A stretch of DNA of 63,014 bases, the filler included. It is 4 parts of 4 records of this genome, joined end to end, with 100 filler letters (N's around TTAATTAATTAA, not from the genome) between each part and the next. Parts side by side here need not be neighbours in the genome. Positions count along the whole stretch, not along the records: positions 12,892 to 39,605 come from SRR31147125_4604; 3 more parts are not named here. One strand, 5' to 3'. Each line of letters starts with the position of its first letter. Position 1 is the stretch's first letter. The notes under the pieces were generated by a model. The model made no database searches. It was not told the DNA's origin and saw only the letters and a program-made list of their open reading frames with translations. The translations under genes were made by a program, and so were the position numbers. Shown piece by piece: positions 1 to 35,845 of the stretch.

Positions 1-185
1 CATCGGGTATCCGGGCTGAGTTGAACCATGCCAAACGGCACACACGCACCGGGAAAAGTATAGCCATCACTGTCTGTACCTATGAAAGGGTCCACCCATT
101 TGGTATATTTTTCCGGTTTTGGAAATGTGTTTGCAGTAATGGTAAATAAAATAAACAACAACAGCAAATAAATCTTCTGTCTCAT
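1..185 (-). CDS. GH92 alpha-mannosidase family protein, N-terminal fragment (runs off window start)
   Basis: Manual translation: MRQKIYLLLLFILFTITANTFPKPEKYTKWVDPFIGTDSDGYTFPGACVPFGMVQLSPDTR; signal peptide followed by the VDPFIGT...TFPGAxxPFGMVQLSPDT motif typical of GH92 N-termini. Confidence 0.85.
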   Translation of the reverse strand, partial: MRQKIYLLLLFILFTITANTFPKPEKYTKWVDPFIGTDSDGYTFPGACVPFGMVQLSPDTR

Positions 186-263
186 TATTCCGTCTCCAGT
201 GTCTTGTTATTATCTCCGATCCTCATTAACAGGTCGATGTGATATTTAATTAATTTTTTCCGA

Positions 264-3101: not shown

Positions 3102-3273
3102 TTCTCATCTCCTCCACTGGATTATTTGAATGTGGGATGTATTTGAAATTGAAATGCAAAACGGGATATACCAGATTTGACTGAATGATGTTTTTCTGAA
3201 AAAATGCGAGACTCAAAGCAGGGGTTTGCTTTGGGAAACAAAGTTTTAATATACTCTTTTCATCGAAAAAACA

Positions 3274-4173: not shown

Positions 4174-4472
4174 GAGAATTCCTTCGTCATAACTTTTAAA
4201 AATAGGTTGTTAACATTATACACGATCTAATATTGTGATCTTGATTCTAAATTATGCAGACTTTTCCAAACTGCGAACTAGAGTGAATAACCACAGACCC
4301 GTATATCAGAGTTTTAAGCATCCAGCTGTATCAGCACTTTTTTTAGCATGACTTAAAATGGCCGGTATGCCAGTTACGATGAATTTTTCGATAGTCATTC
4401 TTGTTAGTAAGCGCAAAGCAGGTTCTTCAATAGTCAAATCAGCAAGGGCATGCATAAAAAGGTTGTAAGGAT

Positions 4473-4499
4473 ATGACTTTTATTTATAATATAAGTCAT
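4473..4499. promoter_or_regulatory. Imperfect palindrome in rnhA / histidine kinase divergent intergenic region
   Basis: ATGACTTTTATT-TAT-AATATAAGTCAT, 12-bp arms with one mismatch. Confidence 0.3.
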
Positions 4500-4844
4500 T
4501 AATATATGAATAACAACTGATCGTTCCCTAAAAGTTACACTAAAATGTGGAAATATTTGTGCAAGATGCGATTTGATTTTACGCAAATAGAAAAATCATA
4601 TTTCGTTAATAAATTACTACTTGACTATAAATGATCCGGGGTCCCAGTCCTCTGTTAATCTTTTCTGAAAATAAAATTAATGATATTGGCGATCTCTTTT
4701 GTACATTCCGGTTAAAATGATATCACAAAAATAGCAGGGATGTTTTCAAGTCAAAATTGTGTTTCATCTGTTGACAAAGAAGTTAATATGGATTCCAGCT
4801 CATATGCATAATTATACCGACTCATAAGGTGTTTTGAGGTAAAA

Positions 4845-6788
4845 ATGAAAACCAGGCATAAAGAACTTGAAGAAAAACTGCACATTAGCAAAAATAACAG
4901 CCCTGAAAAAGTGGATACATTAAACAAACTTGTTTGGGAGCTCTGGATAATAGATCAGGACCGTGCGACCAAACTGAGCCGTGATGCCCTGACAATGGCA
5001 GAACAGATTCAATACCCAAAAGGAATCGCGGATGCAAAACGAAATATAGGAATTGCCTGTGCCGCTAATTCAGATGTGGAAAAAGGTTTAAAGCTCCTTC
5101 ATGAAGCATTGGAATGGTATGAAGATAATAAGGTCATCAGTGGAGAAGCCGGAGCGAAGACAGGCCTGGCAAACATGTATTGGGGATTGGGAGATTTCCA
5201 ACGCGGATTTGATCAAATACATTCAGCAATCAAACTATACAAGCACATTGATGACTATGAGGGTCAGGCTATCGCTTATCAGACTCTGGGTAACTTTTAT
5301 TATGACTGGAAAAATTATAAACAATCTCTCGATTGTTTTGAAAAATCATTTACTTTATTTAAAAAACAAGACATCTCATGGGGTGAGGCGCGCGCCTTGA
5401 ATGGCATTGGCAATGTATACCATTATTTGGGTGAATGTCAAAAAGCTCTGGATTACCAGGATAAAAGCCTGAGAATACATAAACATAATGAGAACAAGTA
5501 TGGTGAATCCAGGACGTTAAATGATATTGGTCTCATTTATTCAAGCAAAAATCAATATGAAAAAGCACTGAAATACCATCAAAAAAGTCTGGATATAAGG
5601 CAATTATTGAATTATCCACAGGGCGAGACAACGTGTTTGCTGGATATCGGGACTATATATATGAAACAGAAAAAATATGATCTGGCTCTGGATGTTATTC
5701 ATAAGGCGTTGACTTTATCACAAAAGATGAAAGCGAAAGTAAAGACGTTTCATGCTTACAAAGCCCTGTCATGGGTTTATAAAGAGCTTGGGCAATTTGA
5801 AAAAGCCCTGGAATACCATGAGAAATACCATGCACTGGATGAGGAAGTCTTTCATGAAGATAGCGAAGAAAAATTCGAAAACATAAAAATCGCCTTTGAA
5901 ATGGAGGCATCTAAAAAAGAAGCAGAAATTTATCGGCTTAAAAATGTGGAATTAAAAGAAAAGAATGGACAGTTGGAACAAACAATCAAAAAGTTAAATG
6001 CCACTCAGGCTCAACTGGTGCAGAGTGGTAAAATGGTAGCATTGGGAAACCTGGTTTCCGGGATTACTCATGAAATCAATACACCAGTAGGATCTATCAA
6101 AAGCACTGCTGATACAATCAATCGCATAAGTGGTAAACTAACACAAATCATACAAAGGAATGGCAATACAACCATTCAGAATAACAATGAGTTGGAAAAC
6201 TTGCTCGATATGCTGAATAATAACGCTCAAAACACCATTACTGCATCAAATCGTATCACAAAAATGATAGCAAGCTTGAAAAATTTCACCAGGCTGGATC
6301 AGGCCAAATTTCAAAAAGTAGATTTACACGAAGGTCTGGACAGTACGTTAACATTACTGAATCACGATATGAAAGATCGGATCAAAGTCTTAAAAAACTA
6401 TGGCGAGATTCCAACTATATATTGTTATCCGGATGAATTAAATCAGGTATTTATGAATCTTTTCATAAATGCCATAGAAGCCGTCAATGGCCCCGGTATC
6501 ATTAAAATCACAACGCGCAGGAATAAAAATCACATTCATATCAGCGTAACAGATACTGGTAAGGGTATACCTGCTGATAAAATACAACACCTTTTTGAGC
6601 CTGGTTTTACTGAGCGAAAGAATCGCGTGAGGATGAGAACAGGACTCTATACGACGTATAATATCGTGCAAAAGCACATGGGAAATATTCATGTTGAGAG
6701 CACAGTCGGAGAAGGAACTACGTTTAATATCTCTTTACCCACCAATCTGGATAAAGAATTAGCATACAAACAGAATTTTGCCATATAG
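4845..6788 (+). CDS. Cytoplasmic TPR-repeat sensor histidine kinase
   Basis: Multiple TPRs (ARALNGIGNVY, SRTLNDIGLIY), coiled coil, H-box GITHEINTP, N-box ELNQVFMNLFINA, G1 DTGKGI, VESTVGEGTTF; no TM helix. Confidence 0.9.
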   Translation: MKTRHKELEEKLHISKNNSPEKVDTLNKLVWELWIIDQDRATKLSRDALTMAEQIQYPKGIADAKRNIGIACAANSDVEKGLKLLHEALEWYEDNKVISGEAGAKTGLANMYWGLGDFQRGFDQIHSAIKLYKHIDDYEGQAIAYQTLGNFYYDWKNYKQSLDCFEKSFTLFKKQDISWGEARALNGIGNVYHYLGECQKALDYQDKSLRIHKHNENKYGESRTLNDIGLIYSSKNQYEKALKYHQKSLDIRQLLNYPQGETTCLLDIGTIYMKQKKYDLALDVIHKALTLSQKMKAKVKTFHAYKALSWVYKELGQFEKALEYHEKYHALDEEVFHEDSEEKFENIKIAFEMEASKKEAEIYRLKNVELKEKNGQLEQTIKKLNATQAQLVQSGKMVALGNLVSGITHEINTPVGSIKSTADTINRISGKLTQIIQRNGNTTIQNNNELENLLDMLNNNAQNTITASNRITKMIASLKNFTRLDQAKFQKVDLHEGLDSTLTLLNHDMKDRIKVLKNYGEIPTIYCYPDELNQVFMNLFINAIEAVNGPGIIKITTRRNKNHIHISVTDTGKGIPADKIQHLFEPGFTERKNRVRMRTGLYTTYNIVQKHMGNIHVESTVGEGTTFNISLPTNLDKELAYKQNFAI

Positions 6789-6864
6789 ATTTTTATGAAC
6801 ACACTATTTTTTTTGATATTATTGGAGTATAGACCTTTACTTTATTTACATTATAACCACATCA

Positions 6865-7215
6865 TTATTTCAGTGTAACAAATACAGATCTACGCTTTTT
6901 GCCATCGATACATCGGGATCTATGCCCCTTTCCGGTTGTATCTTCTGCAAGCAATATATCGCCTGAATAAAACTGACGCCTGTCGCCATCACTCACTTCT
7001 ATCTCTACAGCTCCATCCAGCATGAGGATGTATTGTGCTTGCGGAGCATTGTGCCAATCATAATCGTATTCCGGTTCTGTCTGCCGAAAGATGATATTTT
7101 TAACAGGTATGGCCTCCGAAAGATGGCCAATCTCACCAGCATCCTTCAGAGTAATATCAATATCCTCAAAATGAGAATCCCCGTTTTTATCGACATAAAT
7201 GCGAGTGATTATCAT
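6865..7215 (-). CDS. Cupin-domain protein
   Basis: WHNAP..QY...LDG.VE.EVSDG..R.F..GDILLAEDTTGKGH.S motif. Confidence 0.8.
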   Translation of the reverse strand: MIITRIYVDKNGDSHFEDIDITLKDAGEIGHLSEAIPVKNIIFRQTEPEYDYDWHNAPQAQYILMLDGAVEIEVSDGDRRQFYSGDILLAEDTTGKGHRSRCIDGKKRRSVFVTLK

Positions 7216-7491
7216 GATGTCCCCTCTCCTTTACGTAACTTTAGGTATTGTTTTAACTATAATTGATTTAACATTATTCTTGGTGGCTGATTTTGTAGAG
7301 AAATCTTCATTATGAATATAAGGAAATTATTGTTTTGAATCAAAAATGCTAAACATAAGCATTAATAATATAATTTACAAAAGGTTAGCAACGGCAACAG
7401 TTCCAAGGAAATAATTTTAGTTGAAGAAAATGCGGATGGTTGAAGCGATAAAATATGGTTTAATCCAATAAAACTAACCATTCTAAAAATA

Positions 7492-7530
7492 AAACGTGAC
7501 AAAGATCATGTTCCGATCATTGTCACGTTT
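7492..7530 (-). terminator. Probable intrinsic terminator downstream of msrA
   Basis: AAACGTGACAA-AGATC...GATC-ATTGTCACGTTT hairpin followed by T-rich run on minus strand. Confidence 0.55.
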
Positions 7531-7558
7531 AGTTAATAATTTACCATTGAATTAATAC

Positions 7559-8158
7559 TTATTTTAAATCAACATGGCAGGAACTCATGCCTCGTTTTTC
7601 CAGATATTGTTGGTGATAGTCCTCAGCCAGGTAAAATTCCGCTGCAGGTGTAATTTCTGTGACAATATCGTTTTTATATTTACCGGAATTACGCAGTAAA
7701 TCCAGTGAAGCCAATGCTGCCACTTTTTGCTCTTCATTGTGATAAAAAATAGCAGATCTATATTGTGTTCCCACATCCGGGCCTTGTCGATTTAGTGTGG
7801 TAGGGTTATGGTTTTCCCAAAATACCTGCAAAAGTTGTTCATAGGAAACCTCTGCCGGATCATAATTTACCTGTACAACTTCAGCATGACCTGTCTGATC
7901 CGTACACACATCACGATAAGTGGGATTTTTTGTATTCCCGCCCTCGTAACCAACGGCTGTTTCTTTCACTCCCTTTACCTGTCGAAAAGCAGCTTCAACA
8001 CCCCAAAAACATCCTGCTGCGAATGTGGCTTTTGACATTTTTTGATCTCCTTTGATGTGTTCCTCTGTATATACTATTTTTGTACCGCTAAACAGTGCAA
8101 ATCCAATAACACCCAGAAATATTAAAGGTACAAAATTTTTAATATATTTTACATCCAT
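7559..8158 (-). CDS. msrA: Peptide-methionine (S)-S-oxide reductase, with possible N-terminal signal/TM extension
   Basis: GCFWG catalytic motif, [27 protein letters not shown]; alternative start at 8038. Confidence 0.95.
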
Positions 8159-8211
8159 AATTTACAGACTCCAGAATTGATTCTTATTTAAAACCTTTAT
8201 CAACAAAATAA

Positions 8212-8967
8212 TTAATGAGTTATTGGTTGTAAACCTAAAAAAATCTGATTCGAATAGGCAATAATAACAGCACCAAGAACATCCAGACTGATGTTGTGAG
8301 AAGCCGATATTTTTTCCAGATTTTCAATTGTGAACATTTTAATTATCAATCGTAAAGCCTCTTCGGGTACGGTATTTTTGTCCTTTAGATAAATTTCATC
8401 TATGGCTAATTTTAGTTTAACCTCACTAACCAGTAAAGTATTTCCTTTTTCTTTTAATCTCCCACCAGATTCGATACTCACATACCCAAGATCATTGGAC
8501 TTTAATAATCCTAATAAGCGGATATCTGCTTCTATCCTCTCGAATCTCTCATTTATACTGCTGAATTTTGCATCAATCATCTCGAATCTCTCATTAATAC
8601 TGCTGAATTTTGTATTTATCATCTCGAATTTCTCATTCATGCTGTTTCTGAAATTTATTTCAAAGCTTTCCAATCTTTTGTCCAAATAGATTCTGTTTTC
8701 TTTAAGCACAGATGTAAATTCTTTTCTAATGATTTCCGTTTGACTTTCAATTTTACTGTCAAAATGTAAAAATACGGTTATAAAGGCTGTTATTCCGCAA
8801 ATAACAAGTGGTGTGAATACGGCTATAAAATTTTTCCATGTCACATATTGATTTGATTTGTCAGATGATTTTCTGTCAGGCATGTGCCCCCCCTTATTTT
8901 TGAAAAAATCGTTAAACGTAAACGTTGAAAGCGTGCTTTCCTTTTGTTTTAAATACACGTCTTGCAT
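8212..8967 (-). CDS. Hypothetical single-TM protein with repetitive coiled coil
   Basis: Strong RBS AAAGGAGG before ATG at 8967; TM segment FIAVFTPLVICGITAFITVFL; 14-aa repeats FEMIxxKFSSINER. Confidence 0.65.
   Translation of the reverse strand: MQDVYLKQKESTLSTFTFNDFFKNKGGHMPDRKSSDKSNQYVTWKNFIAVFTPLVICGITAFITVFLHFDSKIESQTEIIRKEFTSVLKENRIYLDKRLESFEINFRNSMNEKFEMINTKFSSINERFEMIDAKFSSINERFERIEADIRLLGLLKSNDLGYVSIESGGRLKEKGNTLLVSEVKLKLAIDEIYLKDKNTVPEEALRLIIKMFTIENLEKISASHNISLDVLGAVIIAYSNQIFLGLQPITH
8539..8640. repeat. 42-bp tandem repeat (about 2.4 copies) inside coding sequence
   Basis: Units start at 8539, 8581, 8623 (CTCGAATCTCTCATT.ATACTGCTGAATTTTG...). Confidence 0.85.
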
Positions 8968-9507
8968 GATTAAATCCTCCTTTGCTAAAGACATGCATTT
9001 TTTAATAAATAAACTCCTTTTGCACCCCACACGCGATATAACAACCTATTGTCTTTTAAAATAAAAGAATAATATTCTAGATGAACAATTTTCCACACAT
9101 ATGCACAATTCAATTTTACTTAGGCGACTATAGAAAATCTGATTACCAATGTTTCATGTCATGTAAGAGTGAAGAATTATTCTCTGGTTAACTGCCAAGA
9201 AACCTGTCAATGATTAATGAAGCATATCACACAAATGTTTCCATGATTTGTGCTCTTTATTCCCCATCCATCAATTATCATGTTATTTTAATTTACCCTT
9301 AGCGTAATCCCCGGTTTTCTTGTCGACCTTTTAGCACATTCAATACATTATTATTCTCTTGTGCAAAACACACAGAACAGAATCAATCATTTGTAAACAT
9401 ATCTATAAACTTTAACCACTTTACTTAAATTAAAATTTCAAAATAACATTTCAGCAGAATTCGATTTGTCAATTATTTCATTGCCTGTTTGATTATGCAT
9501 GTAGAAC

Positions 9508-10587
9508 TCATAGAATCTTAAATTTGGAATCCGATTTAAAGCTCAGTACACTGATCCGGGCCGCAATAGTTTGTGCTAATTTTTTAAAAACACTGGCAAT
9601 TTCAGTATCAGGCTCAGTAGCAACGATGGGCTTTCCACTGTCTCCACCCTGTCGAGCAAGCGGATCCAGAGGTAAACGACCAAGAAAAGGTACCTGAAGT
9701 TCATGGGCTGCTTTTTCAGCTCCCCCATAACCGAAAATGTCATAGCGATTTTTTGTGTCAGGAGCGATGAAATAGGCCATATTTTCAATGACGCCAAGTA
9801 TGGGAACCTGCAATTTCTGAAAGGCAGCCAAACCACGACGGGCATCTGCAAGTGCCACATCCTGAGGAGTAGAGACGATAATGCCGCCGGTTAACGGAAC
9901 TGATTGGGCCAGACTCATTTGCACATCCCCTGTTCCGGGTGGCAGATCCACGATAAGATAATCCAGATCACTCCAGGCCACATCTGCGACAAGTTCCTGA
10001 ATCGCTTTATGCAGCATTGGACCACGCCAGATGATTGGTTGATCCGGAGGAACCATAAAACCCATTGACATGAGTTGAATTCCATACGCTTCAGCAGGAA
10101 CAAGCTTGTTATCAATCGGAGGCGCAATACGATCTACACCCAGCATTTGCGGTATGTTCGGTCCATAGATATCCGCATCCAGTAAACCCACTTTAGCACC
10201 GGTTTGAGACAGTGCAATGGCCAGATTGGCAGCCACCGTACTCTTGCCAACACCACCTTTGCCACTGGCAATGGCAACAATATTTTTAATGGGAACCTGT
10301 AATTGTTCTGATATTCTATTATCGGCTTTCACATTAGAATCAAAATTCACCTTTATATCATGAACACCATTTATATTATTTAGAGCAGTCTTGATATCAT
10401 CTTCCATGACCTTTTTCAATGGACAAGCAGGTGTTGTTAGCATGACGGTGAGCTCGACACTATGTTCATTTATTTTCACATTCCGGATCATATTCAATGT
10501 AACAAGGTCCTTATGAAGTTCGGGTTCCTGCACTGTGGCCAGAGCTTGCATAATGTCCTGTTTCGTAATAGCATTTTTATTTGTCAT
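9508..10587 (-). CDS. mrp: Mrp/ApbC/NBP35 Fe-S cluster carrier ATPase with N-terminal DUF59 domain
   Basis: QEPELHKDLV, LTTPACP, SGKGGVGKST, WRGPM, DLPPGTGD, ENM motifs. Confidence 0.93.
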   Translation of the reverse strand: MTNKNAITKQDIMQALATVQEPELHKDLVTLNMIRNVKINEHSVELTVMLTTPACPLKKVMEDDIKTALNNINGVHDIKVNFDSNVKADNRISEQLQVPIKNIVAIASGKGGVGKSTVAANLAIALSQTGAKVGLLDADIYGPNIPQMLGVDRIAPPIDNKLVPAEAYGIQLMSMGFMVPPDQPIIWRGPMLHKAIQELVADVAWSDLDYLIVDLPPGTGDVQMSLAQSVPLTGGIIVSTPQDVALADARRGLAAFQKLQVPILGVIENMAYFIAPDTKNRYDIFGYGGAEKAAHELQVPFLGRLPLDPLARQGGDSGKPIVATEPDTEIASVFKKLAQTIAARISVLSFKSDSKFKIL

Positions 10588-10773
10588 ACTCAACACCTCA
10601 TTATTTTTATATTTTTAAAAAGTGTCTTCACACTCTAACAAGCATAGTAAGAGTAAAACGGCAGGTCATAATCAATCTATTCCAAAAACTTCATTGAATC
10701 GCTAGTACACGAACAGCAAAAATCCAATTGAATGGATTGACACTAAAACATTACTGTTAGATATAAAAAATTA

Positions 10774-11556
10774 TTAAATGATTTGATCTGCTAATTTGCT
10801 TTTGGGAAGATCAGCAAAAGACGGTAGGATATAATCAGGTTTGAAATTGCTCCTATCCAAATGATCCTGCAAAAACTTTCCTGTTCTCACCAGGCAAGTT
10901 TGTAAACCGACTTGTGCTGCGCCAGCGATATCGGACTCGATGTCATCGCCAATCATAAGGACCTCATGTGGCTTCAGATTCAAATCCTCTAATGCCATTC
11001 GAAAAAATGTTGTCGAAGGCTTGCCAATCAGTTTTGCTTCCTTGTTTGCAGCATATTCCAGCATGGCAACAAAAGCGCCCGCATCCATTTCATATCCCTT
11101 ATCACTCAACCAGAACCGATTTCTTTGCAGGGCAATAAGCTCTGCACCCTGTAAAAGGTATTTAAAGGCTTTGTTTAGCTTGTAAAAATCAGCTTTATCT
11201 CCCAGGTCACCCACAACAACATAGTCAATTTCCTCATTGTCCTGCTGTAAATCACTAAATTCCTTTTTACCATCTTCCAGCATCAGTAAATAACAGCCAG
11301 GTGATCCTTTTTGACGCAGATACAACGATCCGGCAAAAGCAGCAGAAAAAATCTCATTTATGGATACCTTTATATCCATTCCCTCAAGTTTATCACGCAG
11401 TGATGCTCTACTTTTCATGGTTGTGTTTGTTATAAATCGAAATGGACATTTATGATCCCGTAACCAGCGAATAGTATCACAACACCCGGATATAGGGCTT
11501 GAATCATTATAAATCGTTCCATCTAAATCGACAAGCAAGCCTTTTATTTTACTCAT
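10774..11556 (-). CDS. HAD-IIA hydrolase (LHPP/HDHD2-like)
   Basis: DLDGT, ITNTT, GKPS, IGDDIESDI, LVRTGKF motifs. Confidence 0.88.
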   Translation of the reverse strand: MSKIKGLLVDLDGTIYNDSSPISGCCDTIRWLRDHKCPFRFITNTTMKSRASLRDKLEGMDIKVSINEIFSAAFAGSLYLRQKGSPGCYLLMLEDGKKEFSDLQQDNEEIDYVVVGDLGDKADFYKLNKAFKYLLQGAELIALQRNRFWLSDKGYEMDAGAFVAMLEYAANKEAKLIGKPSTTFFRMALEDLNLKPHEVLMIGDDIESDIAGAAQVGLQTCLVRTGKFLQDHLDRSNFKPDYILPSFADLPKSKLADQII

Positions 11557-12204
11557 TTTGTCACCTTTTATATCCTCATCCAATCAAAAAAGTTTATATG
11601 TTCTCTTTTCATATATGGGGTACGACTATGATTCTTTGCTAAAGTACCAGATTATCCAACAGATAAAACCATACAAACAAACTCAAAGCCAATTCAGTCA
11701 AAGTTAATCCATTTTTTTCCTACAGATATTCAAAGATAACAAATAATATCCCATAGGATAAAAGCTCCATCATTCAGAATTACTTCTATAAGCAGATAAA
11801 TCTATCATATCTGATTCCTGGATATCAGGTTGAATAAAATAAAAACGTATAAGAGAAAATGGGTATTCCTTTAATTCAATATCCACCATGTTCATATATA
11901 TCGATATCTTAAAAAACGGTCTGACATTTTCATCTAAAATCGAATATTAACGATATTTTTACCCACAAAATCTGGCAAATCACCGAATTTATCAAAAAAT
12001 CGTTTTCTATTCGGATTATTTACAAAAATCTCTGCGTTGATCTTTAATCATAATGTTAAACAATCTATCAGGGCGTACTCATGATTCATTTGCCCTGGTT
12101 TGATGGTCATAGCGAAACAAAATAATTAGCTATAGTGAAAGCAGCCATGGTCAGATTTAATTAGAAACATAATTTTTCATTTTACCTCAAAGGGAGAGGC
12201 GAAC

Positions 12205-16698: not shown

Positions 16699-18600
16699 TT
16701 ACCAAATACTAACCATTTTATCTTTGTCTAAATACATCTTATCATCTTTTTCAATCTTATAGAAATCTTGAAATTCAGGTAAGTTGCTTAATTGCATATT
16801 TGTACGTAATAATGATGGGCCATGAACATCAACTTTTAACAATAATTCACTATATTGTTTTGATGATTTTTGTCGCCAAACTCTTGCCCAATTTTGGAAG
16901 AATTCATCAAAATTATGATCACTTCGTTTTTTACTTGCTTCTAGTGCACAACGAAGTCCTCCACTATCTGCAATATTTTCAGACACTGTTAATTCTCCAT
17001 TACATTTACCATTTCCTGTTTCAACTTCATCAAAAAGTTTAATCATATCCTCTGATTTCTTTTTAAATGATACAAGATCTTCATCTGTCCACCAATTATT
17101 AAGTGAGCCAAACTCATCAAATTTAGCACCATTATTATCAAATGCATGAGAGATCTCGTGTGCCATTACTGCACCAATTGCACCATAATTTTCAGATGGT
17201 GTTTGATCTAGACTATAATAAGGTCTTTGCAAGATAGCTGCAGGGAATACAATTTGATTATTTGTTGGACTATAATAAGCATTCACCATACTTGCAGGCA
17301 TACCCCAAATATTTCTATTTGGTGCTTTGTTATATTTTTCAAATGTAAGTTTAGTCTTGATGCGTGACATCTTTAAAAACTCATTTAAAACATTAGATCC
17401 TTCTTCATAATTTTTGATATCAAACATATCATAAAATGGTGGCAATTCATCAGGATAACCCACATGAACAGTTAATGTTGATAGTTTCTTAAGTGCTTTT
17501 TGTTTCGTTTTTTCATTTAACCAGTCATTTTGACTAATTCTTTCTTCATAAATATCTATCATTTCATGAACCATCATTTTTACATCTTCTTTTGCCTTTG
17601 GTCCAAAATAAGTTTGTCCATAAAATAAACCAACAATTTGACTAAATGCATTATATGCTTGATAAAATGCAAATTTTTCTTTGCTTTGAGCTTCCTGAAT
17701 ACCTGATAATGCACGTCCAAATGCACCACCTGCAACTCGAATGTCATCCGTTAATTTTGATGCAAACGCAAGTGCATTAGATACAATCATCCATGCTTTC
17801 ATGTTTTCGAATTGTTCTGAACAAATAATATGATCAAACGCGTGAATAAAATCAGGGTTTAATATGATAAGTTGCTCCACATCTTGATTCACAAGTGTTT
17901 TAGCTTGTCCCATGACATCAAAATTTTTCGTAAGTTTAGCAACCTCTTCATTTTTCATAGGATTATATATTTTTACATAATCTGCTGATTCAACTCTTGA
18001 TTTAGTAACAGGCACCAATAAAGCATCAAAAGCTAGTGCGCCTTCTATCAATGTTGCTGATTCTTCTTTTGAAAATCCATATAACTCAAGTAATTGTTGC
18101 GTCGTTTGTGTGAAAAGACCAATTAATTGTTGTTTTTTATCTTTATCATGATAGTATGTCGTATCTGGTAAGAAAAGATTTGCTGCACCAAAATATAGTA
18201 CTTGATTATTGCTATCCATAAAGTCTTGCATAACTGCAAAACCAAAAGGTGTTTCAATAGAATCAAAAGTGAAATCTATAAAAGATGCCGCTAAATCATC
18301 TAAACTTTTTAGTTCTTTAATCTGATTCAAAATCTTATCAAATGGTTTAGCCCCTAATTTTTCTCTTTGATCAAAATCTGTTGTCATTTGATATAATTTA
18401 ATATATTTTTTCATATTATTATTTAAATCTTTAGGATTATCAGACCATTTTTTAGTAAGGTCCATAAGTAATTCTTCAATTTCTAAATGCAATTCCAAAA
18501 ATGCTGAGATTGATGGTTTATCCCCTGGGATTTGTGCTTTTTCTAGCCACTCGCCATTAACAGCTTTGTAAAAATCTGATTTTATAAGTTCTCTATTCAT
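16699..18600 (-). CDS. pepO: M13 family neutral endopeptidase
   Basis: DFYKAVNGEW, VNAYY, HEISHAFD, ENIADSGG, DVHGP..LR motifs. Confidence 0.93.
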   Translation of the reverse strand: MNRELIKSDFYKAVNGEWLEKAQIPGDKPSISAFLELHLEIEELLMDLTKKWSDNPKDLNNNMKKYIKLYQMTTDFDQREKLGAKPFDKILNQIKELKSLDDLAASFIDFTFDSIETPFGFAVMQDFMDSNNQVLYFGAANLFLPDTTYYHDKDKKQQLIGLFTQTTQQLLELYGFSKEESATLIEGALAFDALLVPVTKSRVESADYVKIYNPMKNEEVAKLTKNFDVMGQAKTLVNQDVEQLIILNPDFIHAFDHIICSEQFENMKAWMIVSNALAFASKLTDDIRVAGGAFGRALSGIQEAQSKEKFAFYQAYNAFSQIVGLFYGQTYFGPKAKEDVKMMVHEMIDIYEERISQNDWLNEKTKQKALKKLSTLTVHVGYPDELPPFYDMFDIKNYEEGSNVLNEFLKMSRIKTKLTFEKYNKAPNRNIWGMPASMVNAYYSPTNNQIVFPAAILQRPYYSLDQTPSENYGAIGAVMAHEISHAFDNNGAKFDEFGSLNNWWTDEDLVSFKKKSEDMIKLFDEVETGNGKCNGELTVSENIADSGGLRCALEASKKRSDHNFDEFFQNWARVWRQKSSKQYSELLLKVDVHGPSLLRTNMQLSNLPEFQDFYKIEKDDKMYLDKDKMVSIW

Positions 18601-29151: not shown

Positions 29152-30987
29152 TTAAACCTCAAATTGACTATTATAAAGATCTGCATAAAAACCTTGTTTA
29201 GCAAGTAGTTCCTCATGATTTCCAGTTTCAACAACGTTTCCTTCTTTTAACACTAAGATAATGTCAGCATTTTTAATCGTTGATAAACGGTGAGCAATGA
29301 CGAATGTCGTTCTATTTTTCATCAGTTCATCCATCGCATCTTGTATTAATTGTTCAGTTCTAACATCAACTGATGATGTTGCTTCATCTAAGATAAGCAT
29401 TGGTGCATCTGTAACCATCGCTCTAGCGATAGTTAAGAGTTGGCGCTGACCTTGCGATATATTGGCATTTTCAGATAAGACCATGTCATATCCATATGGT
29501 TGTGATTTAATGAAATGATGGACATTAGCAGCCTTAGCAGCGGCAATAACTTGTTCATCAGTTGCATGAGTACGTCCATACGTTAAGTTTTCTTTAATAC
29601 TACCTTCAAACAACCAAGTATCTTGTAACACCATCCCAAATAATTGATGAACATTTTGTCTTGTAAGTTTTTTTGTGTCAATATTATCAATAAGTATATG
29701 ACCACTATCTATATCATAAAATCTCATGACCAGATTAACAAGTGTTGTTTTACCAGCACCAGTAGGTCCTACAATAGCAACTTTTTGTCCTGGTTTAACT
29801 TTAAGATTAAAATCATGAATAATTGTTTGATCTTTTTCATATCCAAATTTAACATGTCTAAATTCAACATAACCTTTAACATCCTTTTTATGAATGCTAC
29901 GTTCTGATGATTCCATACTCATTTCATCTTCTTTTAAGAAATCAAATACACGTTCACTTGCTGCAAGTGCAGATTGAATTTGTGTCATTGTTTGAGCAAC
30001 AGTACCAATCGGTTGATTTAAGCGTCTATTATACATAAGTAGTGATTGAATGTTACCAATACTAATACGTCCATCGACTGCAAATATAGCACCAACAACA
30101 GCAATAACAACATAACTTAAATTACCAATGAAACGCATAATAGGTTGCATCAGACCAGATAGGAATTGAGACTTCCAAGCTGATTCATAAAGTTGATCAT
30201 TCTTTTCATTAAATTTATTAAGAAACTTGCCTTCTGCTTGATATACTTTTAATACTTGTTGACCCGTATATGATTCTTCAATATGACCATTTAGTTCACC
30301 AAGTACTTTTTGTTGTGAGCGGAAATATTTTTGTGAATGCTTCATAATAATACGTATCATCACGACACTAAGTGGTAACATGGCGATAATCATGAGTGCA
30401 ATCCATACATCAATAACAAATAGCATCACAAGAATACCTATAATCATGGTGATTGATGTTGTAAATTGACTAATTGAGTTATTGAGCGTTTGACTTAATA
30501 AGTCAATATCATTGGTCATACGACTTAGTGTATCACCATAACTTGTTTGATCAAAATATTTTAGTGGTAGGCGTTCTAATTTATTAAATAAATCAGTTCT
30601 TAATTGTTTAGATACTTTTTGAGTCACACGTGCAATCATAATACCTTGTACGAGATTAAATATAAAACTTGCAATATATATAGCAATAAGGATATACATA
30701 ATCATAAATATATCTTCTAAACTAATTTTGAAAATCCCTGTCGCAATAAATCTTTCAACATCTTCTTGTATAATTGTTGTCATATCACCAATTAATTTAG
30801 GTCCTGCAATGTTAGCAGCAGTTGAAATAATCGCAAACACAAGTACAAATATAAGGATTACTCTAAACGGTTTTAAGTAACTCACTAATTGAGAAAAAGC
30901 TTTTTTCATTGACTTAGGTTTTTGAACAATACGTCCACCATGTCCTGGGCCGTGCATAGCTGGTCCTCTTTTTTCTGATTTAGCCAC
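29152..30987 (-). CDS. ABC exporter subunit (TMD+NBD), heterodimer partner 2
   Basis: GPTGAGKTT, ISQGQRQLL, ILDEATSS, IAHRLSTI. Confidence 0.93.
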   Translation of the reverse strand: MAKSEKRGPAMHGPGHGGRIVQKPKSMKKAFSQLVSYLKPFRVILIFVLVFAIISTAANIAGPKLIGDMTTIIQEDVERFIATGIFKISLEDIFMIMYILIAIYIASFIFNLVQGIMIARVTQKVSKQLRTDLFNKLERLPLKYFDQTSYGDTLSRMTNDIDLLSQTLNNSISQFTTSITMIIGILVMLFVIDVWIALMIIAMLPLSVVMIRIIMKHSQKYFRSQQKVLGELNGHIEESYTGQQVLKVYQAEGKFLNKFNEKNDQLYESAWKSQFLSGLMQPIMRFIGNLSYVVIAVVGAIFAVDGRISIGNIQSLLMYNRRLNQPIGTVAQTMTQIQSALAASERVFDFLKEDEMSMESSERSIHKKDVKGYVEFRHVKFGYEKDQTIIHDFNLKVKPGQKVAIVGPTGAGKTTLVNLVMRFYDIDSGHILIDNIDTKKLTRQNVHQLFGMVLQDTWLFEGSIKENLTYGRTHATDEQVIAAAKAANVHHFIKSQPYGYDMVLSENANISQGQRQLLTIARAMVTDAPMLILDEATSSVDVRTEQLIQDAMDELMKNRTTFVIAHRLSTIKNADIILVLKEGNVVETGNHEELLAKQGFYADLYNSQFEV

Positions 30988-32764
30988 GTGAAAGTTCCTC
31001 CTTACTTAATTGTGCATATGCAATTTTTTGATATGTCTCACAGTTTGCAAGTAAATCTTTATGCTTACCAATACCCACTGCTTCTCCTTTTTCTAATACA
31101 ATAATTTGTTCAGAATCTTTAATGGTTCCAATACGTTGACCAACAATCACTTTAAGTGCTTGAGCAGTCGAATCTTTTAACGCATTTCTTAATTCTTTAT
31201 CAGTACGATAATCTAATGCACTAAATGAATCATCGAAAATATAGATTTTAGGTTTTCTAATCAATGCTCTCGCAATGGATAATCTTTGTTTTTGTCCACC
31301 TGAAACATTTGATCCAGATTGATCAATACGGTGGTTTAATCCATCTTCTGATTCTTCCACAAATCCTTTTATTTGTGCAGTTTCTAAAGCTTTTAACACA
31401 TCATCATCAGTGGCGTCTTCTTTTGATATTTGCATATTAGATGTAATATCTCCTGAGAATAATAGACCTTTTTGTGGAACATATCCCATGAGTTCATAAA
31501 GTGTATGAAGTGGATAAGTTTTAATATCTCTACCATTGATTAGGATTTCTCCATCTGTCGCATCATAAAATCTTAACATCAGTAAAATAATTGTTGATTT
31601 TCCTGATCCAGTTGTTCCAATTAATGCAAGTGTTTCGCCTTTTGATGCCTTAAATGATATGTTTTTAATCACGTCTTCTTCAGCATTAGGATATCTAAAT
31701 GAAACATTTTTAAACTCAATGCTAACATCTTCATCCATCACCATATCTCTAGTAAGTGTGTGATCAGCATCATCTTCACTAATAGAATATGGTGTTTCTA
31801 TCACTTCCATGATACGTCTTGCTGATACAATTGCTCTTGGCAAGAAAATAAATAACATGATTAACATCATGAAACTAAAGAGTATCATCATACCATATGA
31901 AGTAAATTGAACCATAATGGCAACACCTTCAGCAGGATTGGCACCTAATGCCAAATCATTAATGAGTACCGCTGAAACAACAACAACACCTAAACTAATC
32001 CCATTCATGATAATTGTCATACTTGGATTTAAGAAACTAAACACAGTATTTACAAACAACTGGGTATTTGTTAGTTTGTTATTGACTTTACTAAATTTAG
32101 TTTTTTGCTGTTCTTCAGCATTATGAGCACGAACAACTCTAACACCCGTAAGCGTTTCTCGTGTAACCTGGTTTAAATCATCTGTTTGTCGCTGAATTGA
32201 ACTAAATTTCTTACCAACTAACATAAAAATGATAAGGATAAGTAATATAATTGCAGCAACTGCAAATACAATGACCATCGTCAATGTAACATTTAGGTTT
32301 ACAACTTTTAAAATTGCTGAAACCGCTGTAATTGGCGCAGTCACAAGTAATCTTAACATTAACACTAGTGCCATTTGAACTTGAGTCACATCATTTGTCG
32401 TTCTTGTGATTAACGATGGTGTCGAAAAATGATTGATTTCTGCTTGAGAAAAATCTTGCACATGTGCATACATCTCTTTTCTAAGTGTCGCAGAGACTTT
32501 CGTTGCAATACGTGTTGCTAAGAAACTAGCTGCGATAGTTGCTGCAATGGATACAAATGATACAATTAACATCATGAGTCCATCACTAAGAATTTCACTT
32601 GTCATAGATGTTTGAGTCTCTACACCAATAAAAATATTTCCTACAATATAGCCTATATATTCAGGTAGTAATAAATCCATTCTTACCTGTAGATATATAA
32701 GTCCGACGACAAATATCATTGATATCCAATGATACCATCTTAAATATTTAAAAACTTTAAGCAT
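30980..32764 (-). CDS. ABC exporter subunit (TMD+NBD), heterodimer partner 1
   Basis: SLITRTTNDV, GTTGSGKST, VSGGQKQRL, degenerate Walker B IFDDSFSALD. Confidence 0.93.
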   Translation of the reverse strand: MLKVFKYLRWYHWISMIFVVGLIYLQVRMDLLLPEYIGYIVGNIFIGVETQTSMTSEILSDGLMMLIVSFVSIAATIAASFLATRIATKVSATLRKEMYAHVQDFSQAEINHFSTPSLITRTTNDVTQVQMALVLMLRLLVTAPITAVSAILKVVNLNVTLTMVIVFAVAAIILLILIIFMLVGKKFSSIQRQTDDLNQVTRETLTGVRVVRAHNAEEQQKTKFSKVNNKLTNTQLFVNTVFSFLNPSMTIIMNGISLGVVVVSAVLINDLALGANPAEGVAIMVQFTSYGMMILFSFMMLIMLFIFLPRAIVSARRIMEVIETPYSISEDDADHTLTRDMVMDEDVSIEFKNVSFRYPNAEEDVIKNISFKASKGETLALIGTTGSGKSTIILLMLRFYDATDGEILINGRDIKTYPLHTLYELMGYVPQKGLLFSGDITSNMQISKEDATDDDVLKALETAQIKGFVEESEDGLNHRIDQSGSNVSGGQKQRLSIARALIRKPKIYIFDDSFSALDYRTDKELRNALKDSTAQALKVIVGQRIGTIKDSEQIIVLEKGEAVGIGKHKDLLANCETYQKIAYAQLSKEELSRG

Positions 32765-32867: not shown

Positions 32868-32904
32868 CTAAAAACTCCTTCGATATATCGAAAGAGTTTT
32901 TTAG
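32868..32904 (-). terminator. Terminator closing the repeat-peptide / membrane-protein cassette
   Basis: CTAAAAACTCCTTCGA-TATA-TCGAAAGAGTTTTTTAG hairpin. Confidence 0.65.
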
Positions 32905-32936: not shown

Positions 32937-33356
32937 TTAAATAATTGTTTTAGGATGAGACTCATGTTTTAGAGATGACATCATCAGTTTGTCACCTATA
33001 AAATCCATCATCGAGATGATGATTAAATATATCATTAAATTAATAAGTGCAATTTGTATGGTAAAACTCATTGTTATATATGATAAAAAGAGAATTGAAA
33101 CCATTGTAAATATGACATACAAAATTGAACCTTTCGTTTTTTGATAATGCATTGTTTCTTTAATCTGTGCTTGTTGAATAAAAAAACCAAATGCGATAAA
33201 TATGGTATAACCAATCATACCACCAAGTTTAATTAATAGACCCGTGTCTTCTTGAAAAGCATTTTGTATTGATATTAAGTTAGTAGCCACTTCCCATTTA
33301 GTCGCAAGCAATGCAATAAATGACCCAGAAATGATTGTTTTAATTAAACTCTTCAT
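32937..33356 (-). CDS. Hypothetical 4-TM membrane protein
   Basis: RBS AAGGAGG before ATG at 33356; four hydrophobic segments. Confidence 0.75.
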   Translation of the reverse strand: MKSLIKTIISGSFIALLATKWEVATNLISIQNAFQEDTGLLIKLGGMIGYTIFIAFGFFIQQAQIKETMHYQKTKGSILYVIFTMVSILFLSYITMSFTIQIALINLMIYLIIISMMDFIGDKLMMSSLKHESHPKTII

Positions 33357-33372
33357 GTTGCCTCCTTGAGTG

Positions 33373-33828
33373 TTATTCAACAAATATGATGATCAATTGT
33401 AATCCATAATTCACCATCATCGCGTAAACTAAAGATGTCATAAACGTTAAACAGCTTACAACTGTAAAACTAGACTTATTATTTGATTTAATTTCAAAGT
33501 AATTATTCATATATTTTTGCACTGCAAAAAAACTTCCAAACACAATCAATGTAATAACAGGAACTGCAATAAGCATAATGCGCAATGATTCATCGCTGAT
33601 TGTTTGCTCTTTTATATTTATTTCAAATAGTATCAGAGATACCCACCATAATAGTGTGATGATAATTGTAACTAGCCCCATATATTTAATTAAATAATGC
33701 TTAGCCACCAAATAGTGCTTATTCTTGATATTGTGTTTAGTCAAATATTTTTTTATAAGGGATAAAGATGTTATTAATCCAAGTGTCGCAATTAAAATCA
33801 GCACCCAGACAATCATTATATATGCCAT
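33373..33828 (-). CDS. Hypothetical 4-TM membrane protein
   Basis: RBS AGGAG before ATG at 33828 (or 33834); four hydrophobic segments with basic loops. Confidence 0.75.
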   Translation of the reverse strand: MAYIMIVWVLILIATLGLITSLSLIKKYLTKHNIKNKHYLVAKHYLIKYMGLVTIIITLLWWVSLILFEINIKEQTISDESLRIMLIAVPVITLIVFGSFFAVQKYMNNYFEIKSNNKSSFTVVSCLTFMTSLVYAMMVNYGLQLIIIFVE

Positions 33829-33902
33829 ACCCATTTCTCCTCTATATAAATCACTTTGAATCAAATTTATGATATAATTAAGACTGTAGATTTTGTAAAA
33901 TA

Positions 33903-34229
33903 TTATAAAGCAACTGATTCAATTTCAATTGTTTCTGGTAAACCTGAATTTTTAAATCCACTAATTTTATATTGTTTGATTTTAAATCGATTCATAGAAA
34001 GATTTTCTATGCTTGCTACATCTGCAACTAAAACTCTATCAGGATCGCCAAACCAAGTAATTGAACCACTATTTTCAAAATCTAAAACTCTATCAGGATC
34101 ACCAAACCAAGTAATAGAACCACTGTTTTCAAAATCTAGTGAAATACTGTCATTACTAAGACCTACAAATAAACCAAACACTGATACTACAACTAACATA
34201 ACCAAAACTAATTTTACTAATTTTTTCAT
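33903..34229 (-). CDS. Secreted small protein with duplicated 18-aa core (candidate signalling-peptide precursor)
   Basis: RBS GAGGAG; MKK + hydrophobic signal/anchor; LDFENSGSITWFGDPDRV twice. Confidence 0.8.
   Translation of the reverse strand: MKKLVKLVLVMLVVVSVFGLFVGLSNDSISLDFENSGSITWFGDPDRVLDFENSGSITWFGDPDRVLVADVASIENLSMNRFKIKQYKISGFKNSGLPETIEIESVAL
34028..34139. repeat. 54-bp tandem duplication encoding identical 18-aa peptides
   Basis: Units start at 34028 and 34082; differences CTA/TTA, AAC/AAT, TCT/TCA, GGT/GGC are all synonymous on the minus strand. Confidence 0.95.
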
Positions 34230-34274
34230 AATTTAAATTCTCCTCAAATATTTTTGTTTTTTTCTTACAACACT

Positions 34275-34321
34275 AATTTATCATGAAAAACCCCCGAATA
34301 ATAGGGCACATATGTCCTATT
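34275..34321 (-). promoter_or_regulatory. Candidate Rgg/ComR-type operator and -10 element for the peptide gene
   Basis: AATAGGGCA-CATA-TGTCCTATT at 34300-34321 (9-4-9, one mismatch); on minus strand followed by a T-tract and TG-A-TAAATT with a 19-nt gap to the hexamer. Confidence 0.6.
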
Positions 34322-34362
34322 CCGACAAAATTATCATAAAATTTGGCAGAAAGAGTGAATTT

Positions 34363-35289
34363 ATGGACTCAAAAGAATTGTGCGTATACATCGAAAGAAT
34401 AAGATCAGCTAGAAAGATTTCACAACAATCTTTGGTTGAAGGTATTGTATCAATTAGACAATATCGTCGTTACCTTAATGGTTCGTCTGATATGCCATTT
34501 GACATCTTTGTTCAAATGGTGACTAAAGTCGGACTGAAACTAGATGCTGTTCTCAATGAAATTGAAAAAGTAAGAGTTGAAGAATATCAATACGCCAACA
34601 AATTATATAATTTAGCCGTGAATTATGATTATCAATCTTTTGATAGACTATTAAATCATAGACCTTTCGATCATTTTATTGACCACAATAATCAGATGCT
34701 TTATGATTTTAGTTTAATTATCAAAAAGTATTATCAAAAAGTCCTGTCAAAACAAAAGACCAATGAACTTATTGGAAAGTTAGTTAATTATCCAGGTGTG
34801 TTGCAACATGAAATTTTAACAGATATTGAGTTGCTTATTCTCTCATTTTTAATTGATGTATCAAACAAGACTACTCGAGAAAAAATTGTGGATCGTATTT
34901 TTTATATTTATAAGAAAAAAGGCATTATCAGTGGAGGTAATACGAGAATTCTTATTGTCATAGCTGCAAAGCTTGCAAAATATTTTGGTATTTTAGAAGA
35001 ATATGATCGGGTCATTGATTTTTGCGATATTGGTTTAAAAAGAAATCTAATTTATAGTTCTTATTTTCTAAATGAATATTTTTATTACTATAAATCACTT
35101 GCATATTATAAGTTAGGAAGAATCGATGAATTTCAAATTGCTTTAAAAAAATGTTTTAATGTTTTAGAACAAGAAGGCGATTTAAGTAAAAAGAAAAAGT
35201 TTGAAGCGTTAATCAATGAAGATTATGATATAGAATTTGATAAATATGTAATAAATCTATATAATCAACAACTAAATATAAAAAATTGA
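34363..35289 (+). CDS. Rgg/ComR/PlcR-like (RRNPP) transcriptional regulator: XRE HTH plus alpha-helical TPR-like domain
   Basis: IERIRSARKISQQSLVEGIVSIRQYRRYLNG N-terminal HTH; helical C-terminus (LAKYFGILEEYDRVIDFCDIG, YYYKSLAYYKLG); 308 aa from ATG at 34363. Confidence 0.8.
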   Translation: MDSKELCVYIERIRSARKISQQSLVEGIVSIRQYRRYLNGSSDMPFDIFVQMVTKVGLKLDAVLNEIEKVRVEEYQYANKLYNLAVNYDYQSFDRLLNHRPFDHFIDHNNQMLYDFSLIIKKYYQKVLSKQKTNELIGKLVNYPGVLQHEILTDIELLILSFLIDVSNKTTREKIVDRIFYIYKKKGIISGGNTRILIVIAAKLAKYFGILEEYDRVIDFCDIGLKRNLIYSSYFLNEYFYYYKSLAYYKLGRIDEFQIALKKCFNVLEQEGDLSKKKKFEALINEDYDIEFDKYVINLYNQQLNIKN

Positions 35290-35315
35290 CAACTCATTAG
35301 TGAGTTGTCAATTTT
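35282..35315. terminator. Bidirectional terminator between regulator and GNAT gene
   Basis: AAAATTGACAACTCA-TTAG-TGAGTTGTCAATTTT. Confidence 0.85.
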
Positions 35316-35845
35316 TTATATCATGCGTTTACCATATGTTAATTTTACTTCTTTATTCTGAACATCATAATTTGAATAAAATAATGTATTTAAACCAATG
35401 AAATGCATGCCTACTTTTTCATAAAACTTAATTGCTGGATCATTGCATGAAGCTACTTCTAAAACAATAGCTCTTGCTTTTGTTGTTAACACATGTCTTT
35501 CCATATGTTTAAATAATTTATATCCAATACCTTTTTTTCTATATTTTGGGTCAACATAGACTTCCCAAATCTTAAACGTTTGATTCCAGTCAATATATTC
35601 TCCTAAAATTAGACCAATAAGTTTTTTTCTATCAAACATCCCAAATGCGATTGGCTGTAATACATAATCAGCAAACAGTTCAAGGTCATAACTTTTCGTT
35701 GTTTTTTTCATTTTTTTCTCTTCAAAGAGATTTGAATGTTTTTGTTTTTCTTTTTTATTTTGATGTCTTGATATCCTTTAGTGATATAGTTTACTTGAAT
35801 GATTTTGCCTTGATATTCATCATATAATAATTGTTCTATTTTCAT
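35316..35845 (-). CDS. GNAT acetyltransferase, streptothricin-acetyltransferase-like (frameshifted at A7 run 35711-35717)
   Basis: WNQTFKIWEVYVDPKYRKKGIG, LEVASCNDPAIKFYEK.G; upstream MKIEQLLYDEYQG... from 35845 joins with one extra A. Confidence 0.8.

Follow-up and report, generated by a model that had tools for sequence, protein, structure and literature searches.

Gene Organization of the Cassette

Within the 63,014-nucleotide (nt) stretch of DNA analysed here, referred to throughout as the window, four genes form a cassette in which a regulator gene and the gene for a small repeat-containing protein (the precursor) are divergent with 133 nt between them, the latter being followed on the same strand by genes for two four-transmembrane (4-TM) proteins of families designated p163 and p148 (Table 1). 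The best-supported reading of the cassette is that it is a signalling module of the RRNPP type, comprising a cytoplasmic receptor with helix-turn-helix (HTH) and TPR domains and a secreted propeptide, and that it is native to free-living Acholeplasmataceae. The open reading frames (ORFs) named in the original prediction, which had been made from the sequence of the window, were all present, namely the regulator, the divergent 108-amino-acid (aa) ORF and the two 4-TM ORFs, and the hairpin terminators that it placed at both ends of the cassette were likewise found, with five terminator-like hairpins in the region where shuffled sequence gave an expectation of 0.5.

The regulator start was put at 34363 because the ATG at 34312, which would give a longer frame, sits inside the candidate operator palindrome and because the homologues begin at the position corresponding to 34363. 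Ribosome-binding sites point to 33828 and 33356 as the likely starts of the two membrane-protein ORFs.

Table 1. Coordinates of the cassette and adjoining features, numbered along the window.
Feature	Position	Strand	Remarks
Regulator gene	34363-35289	+	308-aa ORF in the six-frame list
Propeptide (precursor) gene	33903-34229	-	108-aa ORF preceded by a GAGGAG ribosome-binding site
Two tandem 18-aa units	34029-34136	-	Precursor residues 32-67; candidate released peptides; Tandem Repeats Finder
Terminal variant unit	33924-33959	-	Precursor residues 91-102; F-K-N-S-G-L-P-E-T-I-E type
4-TM protein, p163 family	ORF 33373-33864, likely start 33828	-	About 151 aa from the likely start
4-TM protein, p148 family	ORF 32937-33383, likely start 33356	-	139 aa
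Candidate operator, 16-bp imperfect palindrome	34303-34318	.	Half-site AGGGC..., centre ATAT
Putative extended -10-like element of the precursor-operon promoter	34275-34283	-	TG-n-TAAATT, read by eye
Terminator-like hairpin closing the precursor operon	32870-32901	-	Terminator scan
Bidirectional terminator-like hairpin at the junction of the regulator and convergent GNAT genes	35276-35321	.	Terminator scan
RimI-like GNAT acetyltransferase, convergent with the regulator	35316-35711	-	Library matches

The Regulator Has the Predicted Fold of an RRNPP Receptor

The regulator comprises an XRE-type HTH (approximately residues 3-55), a linker helix (60-86) and a TPR-like superhelix (approximately 90-307), and is predicted to be a cytoplasmic peptide receptor and transcription factor. 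The HTH signal is weak but real, with HTH_19 matching the window protein at E 0.0014 and HTH_3 matching 17 of 33 family members, and structural alignments take in residues 3-60, such that the XRE-type HTH typical of the RRNPP family is present. Within the recognition helix, residues R32 to L38 do not vary anywhere in the regulator family.

At the level of sequence a search of NCBIfam with the window regulator gave nothing above threshold and a search of PDB sequences with this single sequence gave 0 matches. A word-indexed search returned 34 clusters of relatives with names pointing to Mycoplasmatota, Acholeplasmataceae and Mariniplasma, and a profile built from 33 members retrieved 622 representative clusters at E <= 0.001, with 119 at E <= 1e-30. 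Among the profile matches was a 1148-aa bona fide TPR protein with TOM70- and MamA-type matches, ten repeats of which align to profile positions 204-264, indicating a TPR-like sequence signature in the regulator family. Against PDB sequences the profile matched best to Rgg2 (4yv6, 5w4m; E ~0.001-0.002, the best at 0.0014), covering only the N-terminal 96 residues, followed by ElrR (5v5t) at E 0.012, and at E <= 10 no PlcR chain came up with either the sequence or the profile. TIGR01716, which models the C-terminal part of Rgg, did not match the window protein at E <= 1 or any of the 33 family members at E <= 0.1, and a search with it of G001, the genome of the nearest relative, gave no match where a Lactococcus control was positive. 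As judged by these searches the regulator falls outside the Rgg family at the level of sequence.

An AlphaFold2 model computed from the 33-member alignment (mean predicted local distance difference test score, pLDDT, 89.8; predicted template modelling score 0.76) is all-helical, with a five-helix HTH region and a long linker helix followed by paired helices up to the C-terminus. Foldseek comparison of this model with PDB gave 44 matches at E <= 0.001, with PlcR-PapR at E 2.4e-6, and 25 of the 26 among the matches listed are RRNPP-type receptors (PlcR, ComR, Rgg2, Rgg3, PrgX, NrpR, ElrR and Rgg144), the remaining one being 4ryk, an uncharacterised Listeria regulator. In VIA-align comparisons PlcR-PapR scored highest (Z 16.7, 274 of 284 residues aligned), followed by 4ryk (Z 16.1) and by the TPR part only of apo PlcR (Z 15.1, root mean square deviation 3.4 over 213 residues), then Rgg3 (Z 14.5), Rgg2 (Z 14.1), ComR (Z 13.8) and PrgX (Z 13.5), with the alignments to PlcR-PapR, Rgg3, Rgg2, ComR and PrgX extending across both the HTH and TPR parts. 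The TPR domains of RapF and phi3T Rap gave Z 13.2 and 11.7, respectively, and generic TPR proteins such as LGN reached Z 12-13 over the C-terminal part only. The margin in score over these is modest, and the RRNPP matches are set apart by their full-length coverage of both domains of the predicted model. On this predicted fold the regulator has the TPR-like superhelical C-terminal domain of the RRNPP family, as anticipated when comparison with Rgg, ComR and PlcR structures was proposed. The label 'Rgg/ComR-like' is too restrictive, TIGR01716 having no match and PlcR being at least as close in fold.

The regulator gene contains a tandem 13-nt duplication at 34718-34743, 12 of 13 bases being identical. 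A contig from one run, X1, which may be of the source sample, spans the whole cassette with a sole difference, the absence of 13 nt at 34717, by which the regulator reading frame would be shifted; this could be a signal-blind variant arising in culture or an effect of assembly.

Conserved Pairing of Regulator and Precursor

In the window the 108-aa precursor begins with a signal or anchor of the Sec type (residues 1 to ~25), after which come the two identical units of 18 aa, 23 aa of spacer and, at the C-terminus, a variant unit, with the N-terminus showing a K-rich basic stretch and then a hydrophobic segment by hydropathy scan and by eye. The units are resolved by Tandem Repeats Finder as a period of 54 nt (2.1 copies, 94% matches at 34028-34138), and in keeping with the original prediction their protein sequences are the same, differing at the DNA level only by synonymous changes, with 0.28 synonymous differences per site (pS) and 0 nonsynonymous (pN).

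A scan of one genome per species identified 61 loci with a regulator relative (27-69% identity), almost all labelled Acholeplasmataceae, Mariniplasma, Peloplasma, Tenericutes or Mycoplasmatota. The nearest loci carry the labels Mycoplasmatota, Acholeplasmataceae, Mariniplasma or Peloplasma, which bears out the Acholeplasmataceae-like host that had been proposed. In 58 of the 61 loci a divergent small ORF with a peptide motif lies upstream of the regulator, the motif being D or G, then F, three or four variable residues, G, any residue, P, E or D and a hydrophobic residue; no motif ORF was seen upstream of the regulator in L041, L042 and L049. The adjacent propeptide gene that characterises RRNPP systems is thus found in the window and in nearly all of its relatives, and the expectation that homologues would be accompanied by a small ORF with a variable number of repeats and a sequence following that of the regulator was borne out. 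By tblastn, precursor homologues were detected in 14 loci.

At least two tandem units after a signal-like N-terminus were found in 41 of the 61 loci, with up to 8-9 units in L016, L029, L031 and L047, while four loci have one unit together with a conserved variant unit, five have a single unit, two (L013, L022) are cut by a contig end or frameshifted, and six (L052, L053, L055, L056, L060, L061) have a leaderless ORF of ~47 aa with one motif. Runs of N, marking masked or unresolved sequence, occur within the repeat arrays of L010, L011, L018, L024, L032, L050 and L058, so that the counts for these are minima. A terminal variant unit occurs in the window and in L002-L009, L014 and L048, and its sequence changes far less from species to species than that of the internal units. 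The last units of L011, L012, L015-L017 and L019 are likewise distinct and more conserved variants, and a conserved last unit may represent a second peptide common to several species.

The locus also occupies a conserved chromosomal neighbourhood, as indicated by synteny of the GNAT gene in 39 of the 61 loci (43-77% identity). In the family of G001 the regulator was found at E <= 1e-20 in 75 of 172 genomes, a single genome having as many as five matches, and none of the listed genomes of 0.5-0.8 Mb carries it.

The leaderless ORFs belong to a paralogous regulator clade at ~30% identity and have the motif G-F...G-E/D-P-E. They lie ~90 nt upstream of the regulator in L052, L053, L055 and L060, and L052, L053, L055, L060 and L061 adjoin a gene for an LtaS-like membrane protein of ~710 aa, the upstream DNA of L056 being too short to tell. 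Six loci (L041, L046, L012, L019, L021 and L037) come from metagenome-assembled genomes labelled Bacillales, Erysipelotrichaceae or Bacillota; their regulators nest among those of Acholeplasmataceae and the labels are probably loose record labels.

Selection Maintains the Units as Copies of One Peptide

The evolution of the units was analysed in 27 complete multi-unit genes (the window and 26 loci), with masked, cut, frameshifted and single-unit genes excluded. Units within one gene differ overall with pS 0.383 vs pN 0.080, the latter value being inflated by some rows that hold variant terminal units or units out of register. Ten of the 27 genes have units of a single protein sequence that nonetheless differ in DNA, the eight units of L029 having one protein sequence and seven DNA sequences. 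Synonymous divergence with a constant protein indicates that the arrays are not just the product of recent slippage and that selection keeps the units the same peptide, and this uniformity fits a multi-copy ligand precursor better than a spacer.

Comparison of 42 distinct units showed positions 1, 2, 6, 8 and 9 to be conserved and positions 3, 7 and 10-13 to vary between species, and the conserved half of the unit may be a binding core or a processing signal. In a quick maximum-likelihood tree of 59 regulators, from which three loci with a cut gene were dropped, unit sequence tracks the regulator clades, with copy number differing between near-identical regulators (L002/L003, L029/L033, L031/L035). 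Such co-divergence would be expected of a cognate pair, though shared descent alone would give the same pattern.

A Conserved Palindrome in the Divergent Promoter Region

A 16-bp palindrome of the AGGGC-N6-GCCCT kind is visible at the equivalent place in all 31 intergenic regions examined. In the window the palindrome is the only site within two mismatches of the family pattern, 0.24 being expected. The degenerate pattern was matched exactly in 31 of 63 loci, with one site each, upstream of the regulator; among these 63, L062 repeats the site of L001, which is from G001. The exact palindromes lie 40-65 nt from the regulator start with the exception of L042, in which the distance is ~420 nt.

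On the precursor strand the palindrome ends ~22 nt upstream of the -10-like element in the window, and 17-22 nt upstream across the family, which places it at or over the -35 position of the putative promoter. A scan for consensus promoters did not single out the -10-like element, which remains a candidate read from the sequence. ComR and Rgg activator sites also occupy the -35 position. The palindrome is 45 nt from the regulator start codon, a distance at which autoregulation of the regulator gene is plausible, and the invariant R32 to L38 recognition helix agrees with a conserved operator, to which the regulator would bind.

In the clade with units of 13-16 aa a second inverted repeat, with 8-bp arms and a 6-nt spacer, lies between the palindrome and the precursor start, around the -10-like element and the 5' untranslated region (L012, L015-L017, L019, L020, L023, L026, L029, L031, L035, L037-L040, L047, L051 and L057). 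This repeat, absent from the clade of the window, may serve as an additional operator or may form a hairpin in the RNA. An apparent N-terminal extension of many precursor ORFs, M-I-I-Q-L-G-K-R-E-A, was rejected as coding, as it is a translation of this second inverted repeat and of the ribosome-binding site upstream of the real start.

Membrane Proteins and Supporting Machinery

Iterated hidden Markov model (HMM) searches over the ORFs of the loci found p148 in 35 of 61 loci and p163 in 17 of 61, always downstream of the precursor and on the same strand, both counts being lower bounds since many loci lie on truncated contigs. Few residues are invariant in the p148 family, whose C-terminal tail, H-P-K-K-I-I, is conserved. 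No relative was found in Pfam or the ESM Atlas, and the p148 model of four long helices (pLDDT 78.8) had no fold match in PDB at E <= 0.001. Searches of Pfam, NCBIfam and the ESM Atlas gave no match for p163. With regard to machinery encoded elsewhere, signal peptidase I is present in G001, and two adjacent genes for Opp/Dpp-type ATPases (oligo_HPY) were found in all five of the regulator-bearing related genomes tested, G001 having one partial SBP_bac_5 protein near them.

Proposed Mechanism and Alternative Explanations

On the reading of the cassette as an RRNPP-type module, the precursor would be exported by the Sec pathway through its N-terminal signal and the tandem units cut outside the cell to give many copies of one peptide, with the conserved C-terminal variant peptide released too in the clade of the window. 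The peptides would build up with cell density and then be re-imported, for example by an importer of the Opp type as encoded in related genomes, and would bind in the TPR groove of the regulator, the dimer of which would act on the palindrome at the -35 position of the divergent promoter. In so doing the regulator would switch the precursor operon, most likely by activation and hence with a positive feedback loop, and would probably autoregulate its own gene. The co-transcribed 4-TM proteins would be either the circuit's output or accessories to processing or transport. That peptides derived from the units are the ligand of this regulator is given a probability of about 0.65.

Several observations weigh against this reading. 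Since the regulator reaches no curated TPR or Rgg model above threshold, the case for a receptor rests on the predicted fold, and generic TPR proteins score only 1-4 Z units below the RRNPP receptors, in a range (up to ~13) that helical repeats can reach by their arrangement. The units are 13-25 aa long (18 aa in the window) and so exceed characterised RRNPP pheromones, which are of 5-11 aa, and the best-conserved part of the unit is common to all species, which a structural or processing motif would fit equally well. A non-repeat spacer is present in the clade of the window, and the helix at the N-terminus may stay uncleaved as an anchor. Lastly, the locus is syntenic and apparently vertically inherited, unlike many mobile RRNPP systems.

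Some of these points are shared with the most substantial alternative, in which the repeat protein is a membrane-anchored surface protein of variable size with repeats that act as a spacer, adhesin or ion-binding array and are never released, the regulator sensing some other ligand. Repeat-variable surface proteins occur in mycoplasmas, and the possible anchor, the non-repeat spacer together with the tail that follows it in the clade of the window and a D-F...G-P-E core identical in all species are all compatible with such a role, as are the acidic character of the units, their richness in Gly, Pro and Ser and the variation of copy number between close relatives. A surface function would not account for the persistence of the motif in ORFs with a single unit whose last residue is also that of the ORF, nor for the leaderless ORFs of ~47 aa with the motif, which cannot be surface proteins. 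In many species, moreover, the mature protein consists of identical units alone and ends exactly at a unit boundary, selection holds the units identical while synonymous sites diverge, and the partner is always a regulator with a peptide-receptor fold, such that a surface protein is considered unlikely.

A different route to the regulator would be for the units, released or tethered, to act outside the cell on a 4-TM protein that relays the signal, or for a 4-TM protein rather than Opp to be the importer or a processing factor. The candidate would be p148, which ranks third among the conserved genes (in no fewer than 35 of 61 loci and directly downstream in every case), has a conserved C-terminal tail that looks cytoplasmic and was given no known function by the searches. 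It bears no kinase, protease or transporter signature, however, and does not appear in 26 of the 61 loci, though many of these are truncated contigs, nor in the leaderless and LtaS-adjacent clades. As described in one survey and in a second study, RRNPP receptors bind imported peptides directly (PMC9765709; PMC11343458). A 4-TM relay or importer is accordingly held to be quite improbable.

The precursor is most improbably a multi-core ribosomally synthesized and post-translationally modified peptide (RiPP) or bacteriocin-like product, with the membrane proteins serving modification, export or immunity and the regulator only controlling production, for although two membrane proteins of no known family lie in the operon and multi-core precursors occur among cyanobactin-type RiPPs, the leader is of Sec type, invariant polar residues are scarce in the membrane proteins and their fold matches none known, the unit peptides are strongly acidic where membrane-active bacteriocins are cationic, and nothing was found to support the bacteriocin-like module of the original prediction, no modifying enzyme, protease or dedicated ATP-binding cassette (ABC) exporter being conserved in the cassette.

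A wider version of the RRNPP reading would make the cassette an ancient RRNPP branch of its own in free-living Acholeplasmataceae, using a poly-pheromone (up to ~9 identical units on a D-F...G-P-E scaffold with species-specific positions), with p148 obligatory for release or uptake, the terminal variant unit serving as a second signal across species, and the whole being the first cell-to-cell signalling described in Mollicutes. Taken in its entirety this version is tentative and on balance doubtful.

Relation to Known Peptide Signalling Systems

The closest structural match is to PlcR-PapR of the Bacillus cereus group (2qfc, 3u3w and 4fsc; Z 16.7, 15.9 and 15.1), which likewise pairs an HTH and TPR receptor of ~290-310 aa with a propeptide carrying a Sec-type leader. 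Identity in the structural alignments is only 15-18% and homology at the level of sequence was not found. The gene for papR lies downstream of plcR in the same direction, whereas the precursor of the cassette is divergent from the regulator, usually has 2-9 tandem units of 13-25 aa and is accompanied by a conserved 4-TM gene. The PlcR box is a 16-bp palindrome in target promoters, equal in length to the palindrome of the cassette but different in sequence.

Rgg-SHP and ComR-ComS/XIP (4yv6, 6w1a, 6w1f, 5jub) resemble the cassette in the full-length fold match and in gene layout, divergent receptor and peptide genes being common among Rgg-SHP pairs, and the paralogous clade described above also has leaderless small ORFs. 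The main clade differs in using Sec-type leaders, as do the PlcR, NprR, Rap and AimR branches, and the precursor in the window is not the short, leaderless, single-core propeptide of Rgg-SHP and ComR-XIP, having 108 aa, a signal-like segment and at least two cores. An analogy beyond bacteria is yeast alpha-factor, in which a signal peptide is also followed by tandem identical units, released in that case by proteolysis; there is no evolutionary relation, the processing machinery is different and alpha-factor acts on a membrane receptor.

The original prediction had regarded the precursors of known systems as typically single-core, and this stands for Rgg and ComR, with no repeated cores among 658 Rgg or 394 ComR propeptides in a survey (PMC9765709), but not for Rap, NprR, AimR and PlcR, for which multi-copy precursors are described there. 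According to the same survey a propeptide of the AimR, NprR, PlcR or Rap subfamily can hold up to six pheromone copies, one of which in some cases deviates from the rest, with repeats confined to atypically long propeptides, in which they account for 1.6% of the outliers for Rap, 20% for PlcR, 27% for AimR and 100% (17/17) for NprR (PMC9765709). The duplicated pheromones of the Rap-Phr systems of phages phi3T and phi105 are two cases studied functionally (PMC11343458). Rap-Phr, NprR-NprX and AimR-AimP, with their secreted propeptides, share with the cassette the presence of several copies of one peptide in a precursor. They differ in that here repeats are the rule (41 of 61 loci) and reach 8-9 units, the units are longer and have a conserved scaffold of their own, and the host belongs to the Mycoplasmatota and lacks a cell wall; Rap, in addition, is without an HTH.

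As read here the cassette would operate in the manner of PlcR-PapR and of the remaining Sec-dependent branches, and by sequence it is a member of none of these families. What is new is the wall-less Mycoplasmatota lineage, a receptor family distinct from the others and with a conserved operator of its own, precursors that are as a rule repetitive, reaching 8-9 units of 13-25 aa on a conserved scaffold, and a conserved third gene. A literature search found no description of peptide quorum sensing in Acholeplasma, Mollicutes or wall-less Mycoplasmatota, in agreement with the earlier statement that no characterised system of this form was known in Mollicutes. The main texts of two large RRNPP surveys name no Tenericutes, Mollicutes, Acholeplasma or Mycoplasma, though their supplementary tables might (PMC9765709; PMC10075063). 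RRNPP_detector demands matches to TPR HMMs and in strict mode limits propeptides to 10-100 aa; with a regulator that has no TPR HMM match and many precursors of more than 100 aa, whole branches such as this can be missed by the criteria of surveys.

If the RRNPP reading is true, the cassette would offer a tractable circuit for social behaviour in a poorly studied group, with a defined operator and ligand family and with some related hosts in culture (strain zrk7, Peloplasma aerotolerans M4Ah and Mariniplasma anaerobium). Multi-copy pheromone precursors would then be the normal state of a whole receptor family and not a rare outlier, giving a natural system in which to ask why signal genes amplify and how multi-copy precursors are processed.

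Genomic Neighbourhood of the Cassette

The rest of the window consists of ordinary chromosomal genes. A pair of ABC exporter genes at 29152-32764 was considered as part of the cassette and rejected, as it is syntenic in the closest five loci only and lies beyond the terminator. Contigs of three other sequencing runs match the 4-TM genes and the GNAT side at ~95-99% identity, with the regulator and most of the precursor uncovered at >= 85%, the uncovered part counting as no evidence.

Elsewhere in the window a peptidase of the M13 family, PepO type, is encoded at 16699-18600 (minus strand); in streptococci SHP pheromones are broken down by an enzyme of this type. On the plus strand, 4845-6788 encodes a histidine kinase whose N-terminal part is a TPR array (TPR_12 at E 3.5e-41, HisKA, HATPase_c). 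The G+C content is 0.35-0.43 in positions 1-12000 vs ~0.30 elsewhere in the window.

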